From NCBI RefSeq assembly GCF_055900595.2, contig NZ_CM148325.1: a DNA stretch of 64,000 nt; one strand, 5' to 3'. Within the stretch, counting starts at the first letter, position 1, and every line of letters starts with the position of its first letter. The notes beneath the pieces were generated by a model. The model searched no databases and was not told where the DNA came from. It saw nothing but the letters and a program-made list of their open reading frames with translations. The position numbers were made by a program, and so were the translations under genes. Below are positions 53,214 through 63,266 of the stretch, piece after piece.

Positions 53214-54839
53214 ATGAATATTTTCACAGAGGCTGCAAAACTTGAAGAGCAAAATTGTCCGTTTGCGATGGCGCAAATTGTTGATAGCCGAGGCTCGACT
53301 CCCCGCCATTCTGCACAAATGTTAGTGCGCGCCGATGGTTCTATCGTCGGTACAATTGGTGGTGGAATGGTTGAGCGGAAGGTGATTGAAGAGTCGCTTC
53401 AGGCATTGCAGGAACGTAAGCCGCGATTATTCCATGGACGTATGGCTCGTAACGGTGTGGATGCTGTCGGGTCAGATTGTGGAGGTGCAATGTCCGTGTT
53501 TATCAGCGTCCATGGTATGCGTCCTCGTCTGGTGTTGATTGGCGCGGGGCATGTCAACCGGGCGATAGCCCAGAGTGCGGCGCTATTAGGATTTGATATT
53601 GCCGTTGCCGATATTTATCGCGAAAGCCTTAATCCTGAATTATTCCCACCATCAACCACGCTTCTCCATGCTGAGTCGTTTGGTGCGGCAGTGGAAGCAC
53701 TGGATATTCGCCCTGATAATTTTGTCCTGATTGCCACGAATAATCAGGATCGTGAAGCCCTCGACAAACTCATTGAACAGCCCATTGCATGGCTGGGGTT
53801 GCTGGCAAGTCGCCGCAAGGTTCAGCTTTTCCTACGTCAATTGCGTGAGAAAGGCGTGGCTGAAGAACATATTGCCCGTTTACATGCGCCCGTTGGTTAC
53901 AACATAGGTGCGGAAACGCCGCAGGAGATCGCCATCAGCGTGCTGGCAGAAATATTACAGGTGAAAAATAACGCGCCGGGTGGGCTGATGATGAAACCTT
54001 CTCATCCTTCCGGACACCAGCTGGTGGTGATTCGCGGTGCGGGGGATATCGCCAGTGGTGTGGCGCTACGTCTGTATCATGCGGGTTTTAAAGTGATCAT
54101 GCTGGAAGTGGAAAAACCGACAGTGATTCGTTGTACCGTGGCGTTTGCCCAGGCCGTGTTCGATGGCGAAATGACGGTCGAAGGCGTCACTGCCCGCCTG
54201 GCAACCAGCTCTGCGGAAGCGATGAAACTTACCGAACGCGGATTCATCCCTGTGATGGTAGATCCCGCCTGTTCATTGCTTGATGAACTGAAACCGCTTT
54301 GCGTGGTGGACGCTATTCTGGCGAAACAGAATTTGGGTACGCGGGCAGATATGGCACCAGTAACAATCGCGCTTGGGCCGGGCTTTACTGCTGGGAAGGA
54401 TTGCCATGCGGTAATTGAAACAAATCGCGGGCACTGGCTCGGTCAGGTGATTTACTCTGGTTGTGCGCAGGAGAATACCGGTGTTCCCGGCAATATTATG
54501 GGGCATACCACCCGACGGGTGATCCGTGCTCCTGCTGCAGGCATTATGCGATCCAACGTGAAATTAGGCGATCTGGTGAAAGAGGGCGATGTGATTGCCT
54601 GGATTGGTGAGCATGAAATTAAAGCACCGTTGACGGGGATGGTGCGTGGCTTGTTGAACGACGGACTGGCGGTGGTCGGTGGTTTTAAAATTGGTGATAT
54701 CGATCCACGTGGTGAAACGGCTGATTTCACCAGCGTTTCTGATAAAGCCCGGGCAATTGGCGGCGGCGTACTTGAGGCATTAATGATGTTGATGCATCAG
54801 GGCGTTAAAGCGACAAAAGAAGTGCTGGAAGTGGCTTAA
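53214..54839 (+). CDS. yqeB: YqeB, XdhC/CoxI-family molybdo-hydroxylase maturation protein
   Basis: 541-aa ORF MNIFTEAAKLEEQNCPFAMAQIVDSRGSTPRHSAQMLV. Confidence 0.85.
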   Translation: MNIFTEAAKLEEQNCPFAMAQIVDSRGSTPRHSAQMLVRADGSIVGTIGGGMVERKVIEESLQALQERKPRLFHGRMARNGVDAVGSDCGGAMSVFISVHGMRPRLVLIGAGHVNRAIAQSAALLGFDIAVADIYRESLNPELFPPSTTLLHAESFGAAVEALDIRPDNFVLIATNNQDREALDKLIEQPIAWLGLLASRRKVQLFLRQLREKGVAEEHIARLHAPVGYNIGAETPQEIAISVLAEILQVKNNAPGGLMMKPSHPSGHQLVVIRGAGDIASGVALRLYHAGFKVIMLEVEKPTVIRCTVAFAQAVFDGEMTVEGVTARLATSSAEAMKLTERGFIPVMVDPACSLLDELKPLCVVDAILAKQNLGTRADMAPVTIALGPGFTAGKDCHAVIETNRGHWLGQVIYSGCAQENTGVPGNIMGHTTRRVIRAPAAGIMRSNVKLGDLVKEGDVIAWIGEHEIKAPLTGMVRGLLNDGLAVVGGFKIGDIDPRGETADFTSVSDKARAIGGGVLEALMMLMHQGVKATKEVLEVA

Positions 54840-54879
54840 ATGAAAATGGCCGGATGGTATTACCCACCCGGCCTTTAAA

Positions 54880-55812
54880 TTACTGACAAATCACCGTTCC
54901 GGTTTTGCCTTCAATCCCTTCTTTCGCTTTGCTCAATACGGTAATCAGTGCTTCGCGTCCAGCGCGAGAGCGAGCAAACGAGGCGGCTGCTTCCACTTTA
55001 GGCAGCATAGAACCTTTCGCAAAATGACCTTCTTCGATAAAGCGTTCAGCATCGACCAATGACAGGCGGTCGAGCCACTGCTCATTCTCTTTACCGAAGT
55101 TAATGGCCACTTTTTCTACCGCGGTCAGAATGATCAGCATATCGGCATCAATCATTTCTGCTAAACGGGCACTGGCCCAGTCTTTATCGATAACCGCGCT
55201 GGCACCACGCAGATGGTTACCTTCACGAATAACAGGAATACCACCACCGCCAACGGTGATCACTACCTGGCCTGCATCTACCAGAGCTTTAACCGTTTCT
55301 TTTTCAATGATATCAACCGGTTTTGGCGAGGCAACAACACGGCGATAGCCGCGACCAGCATCTTCTTTCAGAGTGTAACCCTGTTTTGTCAGTTGCTCGG
55401 CTTCCTGCTCGGTAAAGAACGAACCGATTGGTTTGGTCGGGTTGAGGAATGCCGGATCGTTAGCGTCGACTTCGACCTGGGTAACCAGCGTTGCTACAGG
55501 TTTATTAATGCCACGAGAAAGCAGTTCTTCTCTTAAGGCGTTTTGTAGATCGTAACCAATATAACCCTGGCTTAAGGCAACACAGACAGACATCGGCAGC
55601 ATTGGCGAGTGCGCTTCCGTTTTTGCGGCAGCTTCAAAGGCCTGGTTAATCATGCCCACCTGCGGCCCGTTACCATGAGTGACGATGACCTCATGTCCCT
55701 GGGCAATTAAATCAACAATTGCCTGAGACGTAATTTTTACCGCTTTCATTTGTCCGGCTAGATCGTCGCCCAGCGCATTCCCGCCCAGGGCGAGAACAAT
55801 TTTCTTACTCAT
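54880..55812 (-). CDS. yqeA: carbamate kinase-like protein
   Basis: 310-aa ORF MSKKIVLALGGNALG (amino acid kinase family). Confidence 0.88.
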   Translation of the reverse strand: MSKKIVLALGGNALGDDLAGQMKAVKITSQAIVDLIAQGHEVIVTHGNGPQVGMINQAFEAAAKTEAHSPMLPMSVCVALSQGYIGYDLQNALREELLSRGINKPVATLVTQVEVDANDPAFLNPTKPIGSFFTEQEAEQLTKQGYTLKEDAGRGYRRVVASPKPVDIIEKETVKALVDAGQVVITVGGGGIPVIREGNHLRGASAVIDKDWASARLAEMIDADMLIILTAVEKVAINFGKENEQWLDRLSLVDAERFIEEGHFAKGSMLPKVEAAASFARSRAGREALITVLSKAKEGIEGKTGTVICQ

Positions 55813-55859
55813 TTTTCCTCACTCATCATTCTTGATTGTGTATAGATCCCTGGCAGTGG

Positions 55860-57245
55860 TTAGAGCACGGGAGGGACAAACGGTTTGCGTCGCAGGAAAC
55901 GACCTCGCCCGGCTTTACCTGTAAAGGTGCCGTCACAGAAAATCGTTTCACCACGGGATAATGTTCTGACAATTGCGCCCTGACAGGTAAAACCCTCCCA
56001 GGGCGAGTAGTCGGCGTTGTCGTGGAGATGGCGGTGTTGAATTTGTTGACTCTGACGTGGGTCGATAATTACCACATCACCATCTGAGCCGGGCGCTAAT
56101 AATCCTTTTTGTGGCCACAGGCCAAATAGCCTGGCGGGCATCGCACTGGTCAATTCAACAAAACGCTCCGGTGTGATACGTCCCGTCATCACGCCACTGG
56201 AGAACAGCAACTGCATGCGGTTTTCCACACCGGGCAAGCCATTTGGGCAGCGGCTGAAATCGCCTTTAGAAATTTGCTGGCGCTGGGCCATCGAGAAGGT
56301 GCAGTGATCGGTCGCCACTACGTCAATCGCACCATCACTAATGCCACACCACAGTTTGTCCTGCTCACGCACGTTACGCAGTGGTGGGCTAAGAATGAAC
56401 TTCATGCCGTCTTCTGTATCGTAACTGCGTTCGTCCAGCAGGAGATATTGCGGGCAGGTTTCAACCCAGACTGGCTGGTGATTCGCGCGGGCAAGACGCA
56501 GATAATCCAGACCTAAGCCGTTAGAGAGGTGGACGATATAGAGCGGGGCGTTACCGGCAATTTGTGCCAGGTTAATCATGCGTGCGATGGCTTCCGCTTC
56601 GCATTCCAGAGGGCGACTCAAGGCGTGATAGCGCGGCGCGGTTAACCCTGCGGCGATAAACTCCGCCCGCTTGCTGGCGATAGCCGCGTCATTTTCCGGG
56701 TGCACGGTGGTCAGCGCGCCGGACTCATGCAAGCGGCGTAACGCCTGCAAAACCTCGTCGTCGTTGAGTTTGTATTGATAGGTTAAATAGAGTTTAAAAC
56801 TGCTCAGTCCTTCTTCGACCATCATCGGAATTTCGTCGAGGATGGCGTGATTAATGTGCTGGATAACACCGTGAAAGCTGTAGTCAATAACCGCTTTATG
56901 GGCGGCATAACCACGATAAACTTCCAGTTGATGGCGTAACCGGCAGCCATTCGGGCCAAATCCCATATGGTCAATAATGGTTGTTGTACCGCCACACGCA
57001 GCTGCGCGGGTACCGGTAAAAAAATCATCACAACTGCGCGCGATGCCGACATCAATATTGAAATGCGTATGGACATCCACGCCGCCAGGGAAAACGTAAC
57101 AGCCAGTGGCATCAATTTCTTCATACGGGAGCTGCGGCGAAATATTGCTGCCCAATTGGCGAACAATCCCGCTCTCAATCAGCAAATCTTGTTTGGCTTG
57201 TCCATCTGCGTTAACGACAGTGCCGTTTTTGATCAATACGCGCAT
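55860..57245 (-). CDS. hyuA: D-phenylhydantoinase / dihydropyrimidinase-like cyclic amidohydrolase
   Basis: ORF 55860..57257; 461 aa beginning MRVLIKNGTVVNADGQ. Confidence 0.88.
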   Translation of the reverse strand: MRVLIKNGTVVNADGQAKQDLLIESGIVRQLGSNISPQLPYEEIDATGCYVFPGGVDVHTHFNIDVGIARSCDDFFTGTRAAACGGTTTIIDHMGFGPNGCRLRHQLEVYRGYAAHKAVIDYSFHGVIQHINHAILDEIPMMVEEGLSSFKLYLTYQYKLNDDEVLQALRRLHESGALTTVHPENDAAIASKRAEFIAAGLTAPRYHALSRPLECEAEAIARMINLAQIAGNAPLYIVHLSNGLGLDYLRLARANHQPVWVETCPQYLLLDERSYDTEDGMKFILSPPLRNVREQDKLWCGISDGAIDVVATDHCTFSMAQRQQISKGDFSRCPNGLPGVENRMQLLFSSGVMTGRITPERFVELTSAMPARLFGLWPQKGLLAPGSDGDVVIIDPRQSQQIQHRHLHDNADYSPWEGFTCQGAIVRTLSRGETIFCDGTFTGKAGRGRFLRRKPFVPPVL

Positions 57246-57297
57246 AGCAAACTCCAAAAACCCTCCGGCGAACCGGAGGGGAATAAGTGAAGAGTAA

Positions 57298-58509
57298 TTA
57301 TTCGGTTGCCAGCCAGCTTAACGGGATTGCAGCGTACATAGCGGCACAGGTCACCAGGTGAGATTTCCAGGTTTTTTCGTTAGGTGCGTGCGCTTCAGGT
57401 TCTTTACCAGGGCCAAAACCGATCACCGGAATGCCGTGACGACCCATGATGGAGACGCCGTTAGTTGAGAAGGTCCACTTATCAACAACCGGCGCTTTGC
57501 CAAACAGCCCTTCGTAGGCGTTCACCAGGGCTTTAACAGTGAAGTGATCTTCTTCCACTTTCCAGGTCGGGAAGTAGCATTCGGTTGGGTAAACCAGGCC
57601 AGTCCAGGAAGGACGGTCGTAGTTGTACATAGAAACAACCGCGTTAGCTTTCTGTACCGCAGGCAGGGCGCGGATTTCGTCCAGCGCGCCTTCCCAGGTT
57701 TCGCCCCAGGTCAGACGACGGTCAATTGAAACTGCGCAGCTGTCTGCTACAGCGCAACGGCTTGGAGATGTGAAGAAGATTTCAGAAACGGTGAGGGTGC
57801 CTTTGCCGAGGAATTCGTCATAGCCCAGGCGCTGGGAGAGTTCCTGCAATTCTCCAAGAATCGGACCCATTTTGAAAATGGCGTTATCACCGCGTTCTGG
57901 CGCAGAGCCGTGGCAGCTAACGCCCTGAACATCAATGCGAATTTCCATACGACCGCGTTGACCACGATATACCTGGCAGTCGGTTGGTTCGGTACTGACC
58001 ACAAATTCCGGGCGAATGCCAGATTGTTCAATAATGTACTGCCAGCACAGACCGTCGCAGTCTTCTTCCTGCACAGTGCCGGTGACCAGCAGGGTGTATT
58101 CATCTTCCAGACCGAGGTCTTTAATGATTTTACCGGCATAAACCATAGATGCCATGCCGCCTTCCTGGTCGGAAGTACCACGGCCGCCTATCAGCTCATC
58201 AGTTTCCATGCCTTCGTACGGATCGAAGTCCCAGTTTTTGATGTTGCCAATGCCGACGGTGTCGATATGCGCGTCCATCGCCACCAGACGCGGGCCGTGA
58301 CCGATATAACCGAGCACGTTGCCCATCGGGTCGATTTCAACTTTATCGAAGCCGACTTTTTCCATCTCTTCTTTAATACGATGCACTACGCGTTTTTCGT
58401 CGCAGCTTTCGCTGGGGATCGCAACCATGTCGCGCAGGAAGCGAGTCATGTCTGCCTGGTAATCTCTTGCTTTTTCAAGAATCAGTTTGAATGGAATATT
58501 CTTAGCCAT
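57298..58509 (-). CDS. ygeY: M20-family peptidase / amidohydrolase YgeY
   Basis: 403-aa ORF. Confidence 0.88.
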
Positions 58510-58566
58510 TATTTTTCTCCAGATTTTTTACTCCCCGTTTGGCGGGGAGCAGTTCCAATAGGGTGA

Positions 58567-59763
58567 TTAAGGTGCTACAGAGTGTTTGCCTTCCCAGACA
58601 ACTTCGCGGTAGTGCTTCACGTCGGTGTCGCCTTCAGTGCTGATAACCAGCACCACGGCATCTTTGTTCAGCGCTAGTTTTTCCATCAGGCTTTGACGTT
58701 GCGGGTGATAATGAACCGCCGCGAGAACGCCCAAACCGACAGCGCCGGATTCACCGGAGATGATGCGCGGGTCGTTGCCGTACGGATTACCCAGCACGCG
58801 CATACCTAATGCGGCAACGCTGTCCTGGCAGGAGATGAATTGGGTGGCGCAGTTACGTAGAATCTCCCAGCCCAGCGGGTTAGGTTCGCCGCAGGCCAGA
58901 CCCGCCATGATGGTGGCCATATCGCCGCCAACGTTGACGATGTCGCCTTTGACGCCGGAGCGATAAATACAGTCAGCTTTGTCAGGTTCAACAATAATGC
59001 TGTGCAGATTTTGCGGGCTGTAGACGTCGACCAGATAACCCAGTACGCCGCCGGCCATCGCGCCGACACCGGCTTGCAGCAGAACGTGAGTTGGGGTTAC
59101 GCCCATTTCACGCATTTGCTCGACGGCTTCATCTGCCAGAGTGGCATAGCCCTGCATGATCCAGGTTGGGATTTTGGTGTAGCCTTCCCAGGCGGTATCT
59201 TGCACCACTTCCCAGCCGTGTTGCTGCGCGTGTTGCATGGTCAGACGAACGGTATCGTCATAGTTCATATCAGTGACGATGCACTCGGCTCCGAGGTTCA
59301 GAATGGCGTCAACGCGTTCCTGAGCGGAACCTTTCGGCATGTAAATTACCGCGTTCTGACCGAGTTGCTGTGCTGCCCAGGCAACACCGCGCCCGTGGTT
59401 GCCGTCGGTCGTTGTAGCAAATGTCATTTTTTCGCCGATGGCACTTTTCAGATGCTCGAATGACAGTGTTTCGATATCAAGATGATATTTTTCGCACAAC
59501 AACTGAGCGATGGCATATGCGCCGCCGAGCATTTTGAATGCGTTCAGACCGAATCGTTTTGATTCGTCCTTAACGAGAATTTTTTTTACCCCAAAAAGGT
59601 TTGCGAGATCGTCCAGCGCGCAAAGTGGTGTTGGGCGATAGCCAGCAATTTTCTGGTGGAACTGGCGCGCCAGTTTTGCCTGGCTTTGCGAAAAGAGCGG
59701 TGATGTTTCGCCGTTGAAAAATTTGTTATCGGCGATATCAATCTTCAATGAGAAAACGGACAT
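58567..59763 (-). CDS. dpaL: diaminopropionate ammonia-lyase (PLP-dependent)
   Basis: 398-aa ORF (YgeX). Confidence 0.88.
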   Translation of the reverse strand: MSVFSLKIDIADNKFFNGETSPLFSQSQAKLARQFHQKIAGYRPTPLCALDDLANLFGVKKILVKDESKRFGLNAFKMLGGAYAIAQLLCEKYHLDIETLSFEHLKSAIGEKMTFATTTDGNHGRGVAWAAQQLGQNAVIYMPKGSAQERVDAILNLGAECIVTDMNYDDTVRLTMQHAQQHGWEVVQDTAWEGYTKIPTWIMQGYATLADEAVEQMREMGVTPTHVLLQAGVGAMAGGVLGYLVDVYSPQNLHSIIVEPDKADCIYRSGVKGDIVNVGGDMATIMAGLACGEPNPLGWEILRNCATQFISCQDSVAALGMRVLGNPYGNDPRIISGESGAVGLGVLAAVHYHPQRQSLMEKLALNKDAVVLVISTEGDTDVKHYREVVWEGKHSVAP

Positions 59764-59821
59764 ATCCTATCCTTTTGGCCTCTGGAAATAGAGAGCCGAC
59801 CTGTCGATCGGCCCGAGGGGG

Positions 59822-61012
59822 TTATTTCACGCGTTCTTGCGCTTCTTTCAGCAGTTGTTCGAGCAGTGCGCCTGGTTTGGAATATTTACGGGAAAGGATC
59901 ATTGCTGCGATGATGTATGGCTTCCAGCTGGCTTCTTTGTAGGTCGCGATACGGTATTTTTCGAATACGCCTTCAGTGACTTCACCTTCTTTGCAGGATA
60001 CGCCGCTGATATCTGCTGGCAGGCAGTGCATGTACAGGGCTTCGCCATCACGGGTCAGTTCCATCATCTCTTCAGTGCAATGCCAGTCTTTGTGTTGCGC
60101 GTTCTGTGCCAGACACTGTTTTTCCAGTGCTTTTAAGCCTTCGTGATCGTTCGCACGCAGCAGTTCAGTACGCTCTTCCATCACTTTGTAAGGTGCCCAT
60201 GACTTCGGATAAACGATGTCTGCGTCTTTGAAGGCTTCTTCCATGCTGGTGACCTGACGGAAGCTACCGCCAGAGGCTTTAGCATTATTTTTAGCTACTT
60301 CAACTACATCCGGGATCAAATCGTAGCCTTCCGGATGGGCCAGGGTGACATCCATACCGAAGCGGGTCATCAGGCCGATAATGCCTTGCGGTACAGAGAG
60401 CGGTTTGCCGTAGCTTGGCGAGTATGCCCAGGTCATGGCGATTTTTTTACCTTTCAGGTTTTCGAGCGAACCAAAGTGTTCACGCAACCATGCCAGGTCA
60501 GCCATTGACTGAGTCGGATGGTCGATATCGCATTGCAGGTTCACTAAAGCCGGACGCTGTGGAAGCACGCCCTGCTTGTAGCCGTCATCAAGCGCAGCGC
60601 CAACTTCACGCATATAGGCGTTACCTGCGCCCAGATACATATCGTCACGAATACCAATAGAGTCGGCGCAGAAGGAGATCATATTGGCGGTTTCACGTAC
60701 GGTTTCGCCGTGAGCGATTTGTGATTTGCCTTCGTCGAGATCTTGCTGTGCAAGGCCGAGCAGGTTAAGCGCGGAAGCATAAGAGAAGCGGGTACGGGTG
60801 GAGTTGTCGCGGAATACGGAAATACCTAATCCACTATTAAAGACTTTGGTTGAGATGTTTTCAGCACGCAGTGCTTTTAATGCTGCGGCAACGTCCAGTA
60901 CTTGTTTCAGTTCATCAGGCGTCTGTTCCCACGTTAACAAAAAATCTTTCTCGTGAAGGTGAGAGGTCAGCGAATTGATATCCTTAATCAGCTCATTAAC
61001 AGTTTTCATCAT
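59822..61012 (-). CDS. ygeW: carbamoyltransferase YgeW (ATCase/OTCase fold)
   Basis: 396-aa ORF MMKTVNELIKDINSLTSHLHEKDF with carbamoyl-phosphate-binding STRTR. Confidence 0.88.
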   Translation of the reverse strand: MMKTVNELIKDINSLTSHLHEKDFLLTWEQTPDELKQVLDVAAALKALRAENISTKVFNSGLGISVFRDNSTRTRFSYASALNLLGLAQQDLDEGKSQIAHGETVRETANMISFCADSIGIRDDMYLGAGNAYMREVGAALDDGYKQGVLPQRPALVNLQCDIDHPTQSMADLAWLREHFGSLENLKGKKIAMTWAYSPSYGKPLSVPQGIIGLMTRFGMDVTLAHPEGYDLIPDVVEVAKNNAKASGGSFRQVTSMEEAFKDADIVYPKSWAPYKVMEERTELLRANDHEGLKALEKQCLAQNAQHKDWHCTEEMMELTRDGEALYMHCLPADISGVSCKEGEVTEGVFEKYRIATYKEASWKPYIIAAMILSRKYSKPGALLEQLLKEAQERVK

Positions 61013-61103
61013 AAAGTCCCGGTAGTGGAATGACAGGCAAAGTGGTTTATTTCACTGTGACTTGCCAAAGTGATTGGTGTTTTCACAGCTATACCAGGGA
61101 CTA

Positions 61104-61118
61104 ACAATAAGTGTGCCA
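61104..61118 (-). promoter_or_regulatory. candidate sigma54 promoter for ygeW
   Basis: Minus-strand TGGCAC-actta-TTGT about 90 nt upstream of the ygeW ATG; -24 element perfect, -12 has GT instead of GC. Confidence 0.3.
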
Positions 61119-61487
61119 GAATTATCCACGCGGCTATAAAAGACTAATTTGACGGGTAATGTGTGGTGTAGATCACAAATTGATGCCAGCTTCCGGTTGT
61201 GTGTAAAATACGAAAACGTTTGGCTTTTTTTATTGCGTTGTTTATTTGCTGCTAAGTATCAGAAATAAGATAAAGGGGCAGGCTATCCCTCGTCAGTTTG
61301 ATAAACTCACCGCTGTAATTCTCATATTGATATAGAAATGTGATATCTCTTCCATAATTTCATTAGAAAGTGATAAAAACCTTATGTTTTTATCAAAGCC
61401 AATTTCGCCTGAGTTAATATCATGATGATCTGTGAACCATCAACGTCTTCAATGATCGACTTTTAAGTAAGTCTGGAAGGTAAAGCT

Positions 61488-63266
61488 ATGGAGCTTGCTA
61501 CTACGCAGTCAGTATTGATGCAAATTCAACCGACAATTCAGCGTTTTGCCAGAATGCTTGCCAGCGTTTTGCAGCTTGAGGTTGAGATCGTTGATGAAAA
61601 CTTGTGTCGCGTCGCCGGAACGGGCGCGTATGGGAAGTTTCTTGGCCGCCAGTTGAGCGGCAACTCACGCCTGCTCCGCCACGTCCTGGAAACGAAAACT
61701 GAAAAAGTTGTGACACAGTCTCGCTTCGATCCCCTTTGCGAAGGTTGCGATAATAAAGATAATTGTCGCGAAAAAGCATTTCTGGGTACGCCTGTCATTT
61801 TACAGGATCGTTGTGTTGGGGTGATAAGTTTGATTGCAGTTACCCACGAGCAACAAGAACATATCAGTGATAATTTACGCGAGTTTTCTGATTACGTTCG
61901 CCATATATCCACCATTTTTGTTTCGAAACTTCTGGAGGATCAGGGACCAGGAGATAACATCAGTAAAATATTCGCGACCATGATCGATAATATGGATCAG
62001 GGCGTATTAGTTGTTGATGACGATAATCGGGTTCAGTTTGTTAATCAGACGGCCTTAAAAACACTCGGTGTTGTGCAAAATAATATTATTGGGAAACCTA
62101 TCCGTTTCAGACCATTAACATTTGAGAGTAATTTTACCCACGGACATATGCAACATATTGTTTCGTGGGACGATAAAAGTGAATTAATCATTGGTCAATT
62201 GCATAACATTCAGGGCAGACAATTATTTTTAATGGCGTTTCACCAATCGCATACCAGTTTTTCTGTAGCAAATGCACCTGATGAACCGCATATTGAACAA
62301 TTGGTTGGCGAGTGCCGTGTTATGCGGCAATTAAAACGACTCATTAGCCGTATTGCGCCCAGCCCATCCAGCGTTATGGTGGTTGGTGAAAGCGGCACGG
62401 GTAAAGAAGTCGTCGCGCGTGCAATCCATAAGTTGAGTGGAAGACGAAATAAACCCTTTATTGCTATCAACTGTGCCGCGATTCCTGAACAACTTCTGGA
62501 GAGCGAACTATTCGGTTATGTTAAAGGCGCATTTACTGGCGCTTCAGCCAACGGTAAAACAGGGTTGATTCAGGCGGCGAATACGGGCACGCTGTTTCTC
62601 GATGAAATTGGTGATATGCCATTAATGTTGCAGGCTAAATTACTGCGCGCTATTGAGGCGCGTGAAATACTGCCGATTGGTGCCAGTAGCCCAATTCAGG
62701 TCGACATCCGAATCATTTCTGCAACTAACCAGAATTTGGCCCAGTTCATTGCCGAAGGTAAATTCCGCGAAGATCTCTTCTACCGACTCAATGTTATCCC
62801 GATCACTCTTCCACCGCTGCGTGAACGTCAGGAAGATATTGAACTGCTGGTACATTACTTTTTACATCTGCATACCCGTCGTCTGGGATCGGTTTATCCG
62901 GGTATTGCTCCCGATGTCGTCGAGATATTGCGTAAGCATCGTTGGCCCGGAAACCTGCGCGAGTTAAGCAATTTAATGGAATATCTGGTTAACGTTGTTC
63001 CTTCAGGTGAAGTTATCGACAGCACGCTATTGCCTCCAAATTTGCTGAATAATGGCACAACGGAGCAAAGTGATGTAACAGAGGTCAGCGAGGCGCACTT
63101 GGCACTCGATGATGCGGGCGGCACGGCGCTGGAGGAGATGGAAAAGCAAATGATCCGCGAGGCGCTTTCACGTCATAACAGCAAGAAGCAAGTTGCTGAT
63201 GAACTGGGTATCGGCATTGCTACGCTCTATCGCAAGATAAAGAAATATGAGTTGTTAAACGCATAA
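61488..63266 (+). CDS. ygeV: sigma54-dependent transcriptional activator (bacterial enhancer-binding protein)
   Basis: 592-aa ORF with Walker A GESGTGKE, GAFTGA motif and C-terminal HTH. Confidence 0.9.
   Translation: MELATTQSVLMQIQPTIQRFARMLASVLQLEVEIVDENLCRVAGTGAYGKFLGRQLSGNSRLLRHVLETKTEKVVTQSRFDPLCEGCDNKDNCREKAFLGTPVILQDRCVGVISLIAVTHEQQEHISDNLREFSDYVRHISTIFVSKLLEDQGPGDNISKIFATMIDNMDQGVLVVDDDNRVQFVNQTALKTLGVVQNNIIGKPIRFRPLTFESNFTHGHMQHIVSWDDKSELIIGQLHNIQGRQLFLMAFHQSHTSFSVANAPDEPHIEQLVGECRVMRQLKRLISRIAPSPSSVMVVGESGTGKEVVARAIHKLSGRRNKPFIAINCAAIPEQLLESELFGYVKGAFTGASANGKTGLIQAANTGTLFLDEIGDMPLMLQAKLLRAIEAREILPIGASSPIQVDIRIISATNQNLAQFIAEGKFREDLFYRLNVIPITLPPLRERQEDIELLVHYFLHLHTRRLGSVYPGIAPDVVEILRKHRWPGNLRELSNLMEYLVNVVPSGEVIDSTLLPPNLLNNGTTEQSDVTEVSEAHLALDDAGGTALEEMEKQMIREALSRHNSKKQVADELGIGIATLYRKIKKYELLNA

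Follow-up and report, generated by a model that had tools for sequence, protein, structure and literature searches.

The ygeW-ygeX-ygeY-hyuA-yqeA run of an Escherichia coli genome as the probable lower module of the anaerobic urate pathway

Anaerobic catabolism of urate allows gut bacteria to use host-secreted urate with a gain of ATP and of short-chain fatty acid precursors, and this use influences human urate levels and gout. In Escherichia coli K-12, the genes ygeW, ygeX (dpaL), ygeY, hyuA and yqeA (arcC) of the locus b2870-b2874 belong to this pathway, and here we describe their counterparts in a window of 64,000 nucleotides, i.e., the whole stretch of DNA that was analysed (contig NZ_CM148325.1 of assembly GCF_055900595.2). 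The function of the run was not known when the structure of YgeW was determined. A bioinformatic study of 2013 tied the ygeW-yqeA cluster to purine catabolism (PMC4016543), and its genes were subsequently reported to be required for anaerobic urate use (Kasahara 2023; Liu 2023). A strain deleted for ygeW-arcC did not grow anaerobically on urate or adenine (Kasahara preprint), and Kasahara et al. suggested a role in ATP synthesis for both the carbamate kinase and the knotted carbamoyltransferase. Reconstitution of the pathway from K-12 enzymes was achieved by two groups in 2025 (Liu et al., 10.1101/2025.04.24.650524, a preprint cited as Nat Microbiol 10:2291 in PMC12990295; Li et al., PMC12507026), which closed a gap of 14 years, the YgeW structure dating from 2011 when its substrate was not known.

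The reconstitutions of 2025 established that in E. coli urate is reduced to 2,8-dioxopurine by XdhD-YgfM, after which YgfK dearomatises the product. Liu et al. carried the sequential reaction in vitro from urate to pyruvate and obtained ATP from 2,3-diureidopropanoate, ADP and Mg with YgeW and YqeA together and with neither enzyme alone (10.1101/2025.04.24.650524). Independently, Li et al. reconstituted the pathway using XdhD-YgfM, YgfK, SsnA, HyuA, YgeW with phosphate, YgeY and YgeX (PMC12507026).

Related logic is known from other systems. In the arginine deiminase pathway (ArcA, the catabolic OTCase ArcB, and ArcC), a phosphorolytic transcarbamylase likewise generates carbamoyl phosphate, from which carbamate kinase forms ATP, and Liu et al. 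liken the ATP formation by YgeW and YqeA to this pathway (10.1101/2025.04.24.650524); the donor there is citrulline, whereas the ureido donor of the urate pathway is 2,3-diureidopropanoate. The oxalurate route (AllFGH and the carbamate kinase AllK/YbcF), also found in E. coli, similarly leads from a purine-derived ureido compound through carbamoyl phosphate to ATP. YgeW belongs to the knotted clade of transcarbamylases together with AOTCase and SOTCase (PDB identifiers 3KZC and 2FG6), with which it shares the carbamoyl-phosphate motifs, the trefoil knot, and a Lys together with Gln/Glu that anchor the substrate carboxylate. These enzymes are, however, anabolic, acting on N-acyl-ornithine in arginine synthesis, whereas YgeW is catabolic and differs from them in having additional helices at both termini, a longer 240's loop and an 80's loop like that of OTCase (PMC4581275).

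The run of the window matches the K-12 locus in gene order, strand, spacer lengths, the 17-mer of its sigma-54 element and flanking genes, and differs from it by about 4% mostly synonymous nucleotide divergence and by lacking a REP (repetitive extragenic palindromic)-type insert of about 150 bp between yqeA and yqeB; no functional difference from the K-12 locus is expected. We conclude that the run is, very probably, the lower module of the anaerobic reductive uric-acid (2,8-dioxopurine) pathway, yielding one ATP per urate and transcribed with sigma-54. Our own checks covered the identity and intactness of the genes, the carbamoyl-phosphate site, the promoter element and the conservation of gene order; the enzyme activities are presumably those measured in vitro on the near-identical K-12 proteins. 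In this scheme, the upper module (xdhD-ygfM, ygfK and ssnA) would convert urate to 2,8-dioxopurine, dearomatise it and open its six-membered ring to give a ureido-substituted hydantoin, whose remaining ring HyuA would open to yield 2,3-diureidopropanoate. Phosphorolysis of one ureido group of this compound by YgeW would then release carbamoyl phosphate and leave a mono-ureido aminopropanoate, and YqeA would use the carbamoyl phosphate and ADP to form ATP and carbamate (one ATP per urate, by substrate-level phosphorylation). The remaining ureido group would be hydrolysed by YgeY, and YgeX would convert the resulting 2,3-diaminopropanoate to pyruvate and two NH3. The original prediction, made on this DNA from its letters, had read the pairing of a transcarbamylase with a carbamate kinase as substrate-level ATP formation; this reading is right and is already known, having been demonstrated experimentally for K-12 YgeW and YqeA and published in detail. 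The prediction had held the substrate to be unreadable from sequence, and it is the literature that now names it as 2,3-diureidopropanoate. All of the pathway is thus published and the window adds one more, slightly divergent E. coli allele; possibly still useful are the disagreement in print over the ureido group removed by YgeW and a set of conserved hairpins which may tune enzyme ratios.

The five genes, their products and their conserved order

The run consists of five minus-strand open reading frames (ORFs), and its outer limits in the ORF listing of the window are exactly 54880 and 61012 (Table 1). The spacers, in the order ygeW-ygeX-ygeY-hyuA-yqeA, measure 58, 57, 52 and 47 bp, so that the same-strand five-gene run with spacers of 46 to 58 bp that had been predicted is essentially correct. 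All five genes are intact and are named ygeW, dpaL, ygeY, hyuA and arcC by RefSeq in complete E. coli genomes. Their proteins are 99.3-99.8% identical to the K-12 counterparts; each gene differs from that of K-12 MG1655 by 32-65 nucleotides, but only by 1-3 amino acids, and this paucity of amino-acid changes points to strong purifying selection on the five genes. For hyuA, the mechanical ORF spans 55860-57257 from a TTG, and an ATG at 57245 lies 8 nucleotides past a GGAG; the ATG is the likely start in preference to the TTG and yields 461 residues as in the K-12 annotation.

Table 1. Features of the ygeW-yqeA run and its flanks (positions in the window)
Feature	Positions	Strand	Length or folding energy	Description
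ygeW	59822..61012	minus	396 aa	knotted carbamoyltransferase (YTCase)
ygeX/dpaL	58567..59763	minus	398 aa	pyridoxal phosphate-dependent 2,3-diaminopropionate ammonia-lyase
ygeY	57298..58509	minus	403 aa	M20-family amidohydrolase
hyuA	55860..57245	minus	461 aa	D-hydantoinase-type cyclic amidohydrolase
yqeA (arcC-type)	54880..55812	minus	310 aa	carbamate kinase
ygeV	61488..63266	plus		divergent from ygeW; sigma-54 enhancer-binding activator architecture
sigma-54 -24/-12 element	61103..61119	minus		CTGGCACACTTATTGTT; about 90 nt upstream of the ygeW ATG
CRP-like site	61162..61177	minus		TGTGATCTACACCACA (TGTGA-N6-CCACA); ygeV-ygeW spacer, read from sequence
GC-rich hairpin	59793..59814	minus		ygeW-ygeX spacer
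Hairpin	58531..58549	minus	-17.5 kcal/mol, z = -3.2	ygeX-ygeY spacer; followed by an A-run, not a U-run
Terminator-like hairpin	57261..57280	minus	-18.4 kcal/mol, z = -2.9	CCCTCCGG-TTCG-CCGGAGGG followed by TTTTT; ygeY-hyuA spacer
Strong hairpin	54848..54873	minus	-22.6 kcal/mol, z = -5.5	U-rich tail; between convergent yqeA and yqeB

The enzyme classes that had been predicted for the five products are borne out, as every product scores above the cutoff of a curated NCBIfam equivalog model. YgeW reaches 823 bits against NF005538 (cutoff 453), YgeX 651 bits against the diaminopropionate ammonia-lyase model TIGR03528 (cutoff 532), YgeY 721 bits against TIGR03526 (cutoff 321), HyuA 677 bits against the D-hydantoinase/dihydropyrimidinase model TIGR02033 (cutoff 393) and YqeA 383.5 bits against the carbamate kinase model TIGR00746 (cutoff 358.25). 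Among solved structures, YgeX can be equated with PDB identifier 4D9G (909 bits), YqeA aligns along its whole length with the carbamate kinases 1B7B and 1E19 (about 300 bits), and the nearest relatives of HyuA are D-hydantoinases such as 1YNY. The same search of solved structures found no close relative of YgeY, the nearest being ArgE, DapE and CPG2.

YgeW differs from the K-12 protein at two residues and is essentially identical to the protein of PDB identifier 3Q98 (chain A, matched over residues 1-396 at 895 bits). The solved structure that comes next is the E. faecalis orthologue 2YFK, ahead of N-acetylornithine transcarbamylases and then of OTCases and putrescine transcarbamylases. The carbamoyl-phosphate motifs are all retained (STRT at 71-74, R122, HPTQ at 165-168 and HCLP at 329-332), as are the putative second-substrate residues Q160, K270, D124, S200 and K203. 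The original prediction had named the absence of carbamoyl-phosphate-binding residues from YgeW as evidence that would count against it, and all of the motifs are present. Seventeen of the 18 YgeW residues listed in PMC4581275 are found under their published numbers. The remaining one, K363, is given in the table of that paper as a carbamoyl-phosphate residue, and both the window (59921-59926) and K-12 read W363-K364 here; this appears to be an off-by-one slip in the published numbering and not a substitution. By its near-identity to 3Q98, in which a trefoil knot has been described (PMC4581275), YgeW is predicted to have the knotted C-terminal domain with its proline-rich loop.

The arrangement is widely conserved. 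A scan of species-representative genomes with YgeW identified at least 594 relatives, and the best 80 of these (68-95% identical) were examined by mapping the K-12 proteins onto their loci. The best 80 span Gammaproteobacteria, Betaproteobacteria, Bacteroidota, Riflebacteria, Lentisphaerae, Verrucomicrobiota, Bdellovibrionota and Spirochaetes, and among them 35 species other than E. coli carry the colinear ygeW-ygeX-ygeY-hyuA-yqeA run, all of which belong to the Gammaproteobacteria (Enterobacterales, Aeromonas and Photobacterium). Within E. coli, 5161 of 5426 complete genomes contain almost the whole 7-kb stretch, and this presence, along with the 35 colinear species, indicates that the arrangement is not due to chance. 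Neighbours were counted as partners within 10 kb of ygeW at loci with at least 5 kb on each side, i.e., at 35 gammaproteobacterial loci and 19 loci of other phyla. YgeY, YgeX and HyuA are encoded near ygeW at all 35 gammaproteobacterial loci and at 17, 1 and 7, respectively, of the 19 others; YqeA is found at 34/35 and 5/19, and YgeV at 33/35 and 1/19. SsnA is near ygeW at 3/35 gammaproteobacterial loci and at 13/19 of the others, and Xdh homologues are near it at 10 (XdhA) and 9 (XdhD) of the 35 and at 11 (XdhA) and 11 (XdhD) of the 19. Outside Gammaproteobacteria, the most constant neighbour of ygeW is a directly adjacent ygeY, usually with ssnA and an xdh-type gene nearby. By these counts, the link to purine-ring catabolism is general and physical linkage of the kinase is lineage-dependent, the latter in agreement with the 33/39 gut strains counted by Liu et al. 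(10.1101/2025.04.24.650524).

At the Photobacterium loci the colinear run is kept with a carbamate kinase only about 40% identical to YqeA, the other four proteins being 64-84% identical; the kinase slot has seemingly been refilled from a different carbamate kinase lineage, which argues for selection to keep a kinase in this place. YgeW itself is 68-79% identical between E. coli and Bacteroidota, Riflebacteria, Verrucomicrobiota and Spirochaetes, whereas its neighbours in the same loci are far more diverged (YgeY about 50%, HyuA about 38% and SsnA about 35%). This cross-phylum conservation of YgeW could reflect either very strong constraint or lateral transfer.

Promoter region and intergenic hairpins

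The sigma-54 element upstream of ygeW was found by direct reading and by pattern search, and its 17-mer is the same in K-12. It corresponds to the site OS30 found by chromatin immunoprecipitation sequencing (ChIP-seq) of sigma-54 and assigned to ygeW by Bonocora et al. (PMC4591121), where the value beside the OS30 coordinate is low compared with that of, for example, hypA. A peak of RpoN in genomic SELEX (systematic evolution of ligands by exponential enrichment) falls within the ygeV/ygeW spacer (PMC8743547), and other sigma-54 sites in the region have been reported before xdhA, ygfK and ygfT (PMC4591121). The spacer upstream of ygeW, 475 bp in length, is common to the divergent ygeV, whose product is 99.2% identical to K-12 YgeV and contains the Pfam domains Sigma54_activat (2e-70; the AAA+ module), PAS (residues 162-205) and HTH_8. 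The run hence combines the two marks of a sigma-54 operon, a -24/-12 element upstream of its first gene and an adjacent gene for an enhancer-binding activator. YgeV has been linked to urate use and to this regulon, the "YgeV iModulon" grouping ygeW with xdhA, ygfK and ygfT (PMC10602906). Li et al. report a native Crp-binding site in the ygeV-ygeW spacer and repression of urate degradation by glucose (PMC12507026), and a CRP-like site is present in the spacer of the window. We infer that the ygeW promoter is a direct target of YgeV and serves all five genes; the sigma-54 promoter would start transcription, YgeV would presumably activate it, and CRP would place it under control by glucose.

GC-rich stem-loops occupy three of the four spacers between the five genes. 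The hairpin in the ygeY-hyuA spacer has an 8-bp GC stem, a UUCG loop and a U5 tail, stands directly before the hyuA Shine-Dalgarno sequence and is positive in a terminator scan; its role could be partial termination or stabilisation of the mRNA. The hairpin between yqeA and yqeB, which no shuffled sequence equalled in folding and which the terminator scan also picked, is likely the transcript end. No match to a known riboswitch or small RNA was found by an Rfam scan of 54500-61600 at E <= 1. Folding of a MAFFT alignment of the ygeY-hyuA spacers with RNAalifold returned 0 pairs, the stems being divergent in sequence and out of register, and hairpins were therefore counted sequence by sequence against shuffled spacers (stems of at least 7 bp, 5 or more of them GC pairs, in 36 colinear loci). 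A hairpin follows ygeW in 25 loci (1.9 expected), ygeX in 11 (1.2 expected), ygeY in 29 (3.3 expected), hyuA in 4 (0.4 expected) and yqeA in 19 (1.8 expected). Under a looser definition (at least 6 bp and 4 GC pairs), the ygeY-hyuA hairpin carries a T-rich tail in 11/36 loci. The hairpins after ygeW and ygeY keep their structure across Enterobacterales, Aeromonas and relatives with their sequence replaced, and the hairpin after ygeW contains two covarying pairs (C-G to U-A in 8/17 sequences and G-C to A-U in 3/17). The hyuA-yqeA spacer is at most 15 nucleotides long, or the genes overlap, in 14 of the 36 loci, which suggests translational coupling there. To our reading of the literature on this pathway, the conserved set of intergenic hairpins has not been described, and it is the only mildly new item of this analysis.

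These hairpins bear on how the run is transcribed. The original prediction had taken the five genes to be one operon, and this stands insofar as the run has one sigma-54 promoter region, ahead of ygeW, and no convincing internal promoter between its genes; it is qualified by the terminator-like hairpin between ygeY and hyuA. The literature itself speaks both of a ygeWXY operon (PRECISE-1K, PMC10602906) and of a ygeW-arcC operon (Kasahara preprint). If a genuine terminator followed ygeY and split the run into at least two transcription units (such as ygeWXY and hyuA-yqeA), ring opening and ATP formation could be regulated separately. The name used in PRECISE-1K agrees with such a division, as do the GC-rich stem, UUCG loop and U5 tail at 57261-57280 and the recurrence of a hairpin at this place far above expectation, at times with a T-rich tail. 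However, the U-tract is short and is followed immediately by the hyuA ribosome-binding site, the spacer has just 52 bp and no promoter-like site close upstream of hyuA (a sigma-70 promoter scan gave 5 sites against 6.9 expected, none usefully placed there), and the published sigma-54 sites of the region lie only at xdhA, ygeW, ygfK and ygfT (PMC4591121). Moreover, HyuA makes the substrate of YgeW, so that unrelated regulation of the two would be counterproductive, and Kasahara et al. treat ygeW-arcC as one operon. We thus consider a division into separate units unlikely, and infer one transcript, driven by sigma-54, in which conserved internal hairpins would affect read-through or stability. 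It is possible, though less likely than not, that the hairpins after ygeW, after ygeY and, in fewer loci, after ygeX punctuate the operon, the one after ygeY acting as a partial intrinsic terminator or 3'-end stabiliser, such that ygeWXY and hyuA-yqeA would be expressed from the one sigma-54 promoter in different and perhaps regulated ratios.

Alternative functions and the order of ureido cleavage

The function of the run could also be read in other ways. YgeW was historically proposed to be an oxamate (oxalurate) transcarbamylase (PMC11326118), which would make the run part of an anaerobic allantoin/oxalurate fermentation, and the same logic of a transcarbamylase paired with a carbamate kinase would apply. 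The oxamate activity has, however, been assigned to AllF-AllG-AllH, which bear no similarity to the transcarbamylase family, and YgeW, an enzyme of the ATCase/OTCase fold, is reported to be inactive on oxamate-related compounds (PMC11326118). The oxalurate route also differs in the three-subunit build of AllFGH, which has no sequence relation to YgeW, and the two pathways are genetically separable, deletion of allB blocking the use of allantoin and not of urate, and deletion of ygeW-arcC doing the reverse (Kasahara preprint). YgeW as oxamate transcarbamylase is refuted by the published assays, and the probability of this reading is close to nil. Nor is the run a member of the arginine deiminase pathway, which it resembles in its working: YgeW falls below the OTCase equivalog model of NCBIfam (132 bits against a cutoff of 281), and no arginine deiminase gene is present among the identified neighbours of the run in the window. 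Of the two analogies drawn in the original prediction, to the arginine deiminase and oxalurate routes, the shared logic therefore holds and membership in either does not. Alternatively, the genes might form a general operon for hydantoins and N-carbamoyl-D-amino acids, in which HyuA would be a D-phenylhydantoinase, YgeY a carbamoylase, and the transcarbamylase and kinase incidental. The RefSeq label of hyuA (D-phenylhydantoinase), the industrial D-hydantoinases among the nearest solved relatives of HyuA and the membership of YgeY in the M20 amidohydrolases are in line with this. Yet the demonstrated physiological substrate of HyuA is the urate-derived ureido-hydantoin (Liu et al.; PMC12507026), the run is conserved beside xanthine-dehydrogenase-type genes, ssnA, ygfK and the urate permease, and its deletion abolishes anaerobic growth on urate or adenine (Kasahara preprint); we regard a general hydantoin operon as very improbable.

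Several observations weigh against the assignment of the run to a sigma-54-driven, ATP-yielding urate module. The -12 element at 61103-61119 reads TTGTT, with GT replacing GC, in the window as in K-12. Sigma-54 consensus matches are not enriched across the window (4 against 3.6 expected with one mismatch allowed), so that our assignment of the promoter depends on its location and on the ChIP-seq and SELEX results in the literature. The terminator-like hairpin after ygeY leaves a single transcript unproven, and the linkage of the ATP step is not universal, a carbamate kinase lying within 10 kb of ygeW at just five of the 19 non-gammaproteobacterial loci. Finally, the papers of Liu et al. and Li et al. 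differ as to the ureido group that YgeW removes. Nothing among these points contradicts the assignment of the run to the urate pathway.

As regards the last point, Liu et al. report that YgeW takes the 3-ureido group of 2,3-diureidopropanoate to leave 3-amino-2-ureidopropanoate (10.1101/2025.04.24.650524), whereas according to Li et al., who used an authentic albizziin standard, it takes the 2-ureido group to leave albizziin (PMC12507026). The latter authors also describe a D-aminoacylase homologue in place of YgeW in C. difficile (PMC12507026), and a commentary of November 2025 called the order of ureido cleavage unresolved (PMC12990295). AOTCase and SOTCase, the nearest solved relatives of YgeW, carbamoylate the distal amine of N-alpha-acylated diamino acids, and ArgE and DapE, the nearest solved relatives of YgeY, deacylate N-alpha-acyl amino acids. 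Both analogies would fit the order of Liu et al. and favour it weakly, and they cannot decide the question.

Flanking genes and allelic variation in E. coli

The window is colinear, in reverse orientation, with the purine-catabolism region of K-12. The upper-module proteins YgfK, SsnA, YgfM and XdhD and the urate permease UacT are encoded full-length, with 97.5-99.4% identity to K-12, and so are the neighbours xdhC, ygeV, yqeB, yqeC, mocA, xanQ, guaD, ghxQ, ygfS and ygfT (96-100% identity). At the nucleotide level the allele of the window is about 96% identical to that of K-12, and its best match in the genome collection reaches 99.1%. Over 54500-61500, identity to the window is 99% or more in only one E. 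coli genome, 95-99% in 4155 and 90-95% in 1025; allelic divergence at this locus is thus deep for E. coli, with about 4% in nucleotides and at most 0.7% in proteins relative to K-12.

The gap from stop to stop between yqeA and yqeB is 40 bp in the window (54840-54879) and contains one hairpin, whereas in K-12 it is 220 bp and the same 26-nucleotide hairpin stands at both ends of the insert of about 150 bp, which is of the REP or BIME (bacterial interspersed mosaic element) type. The filled, K-12-like gap is found in about 1649 of the 5426 complete E. coli genomes; the difference is therefore an insertion polymorphism by which the terminator hairpin is duplicated.

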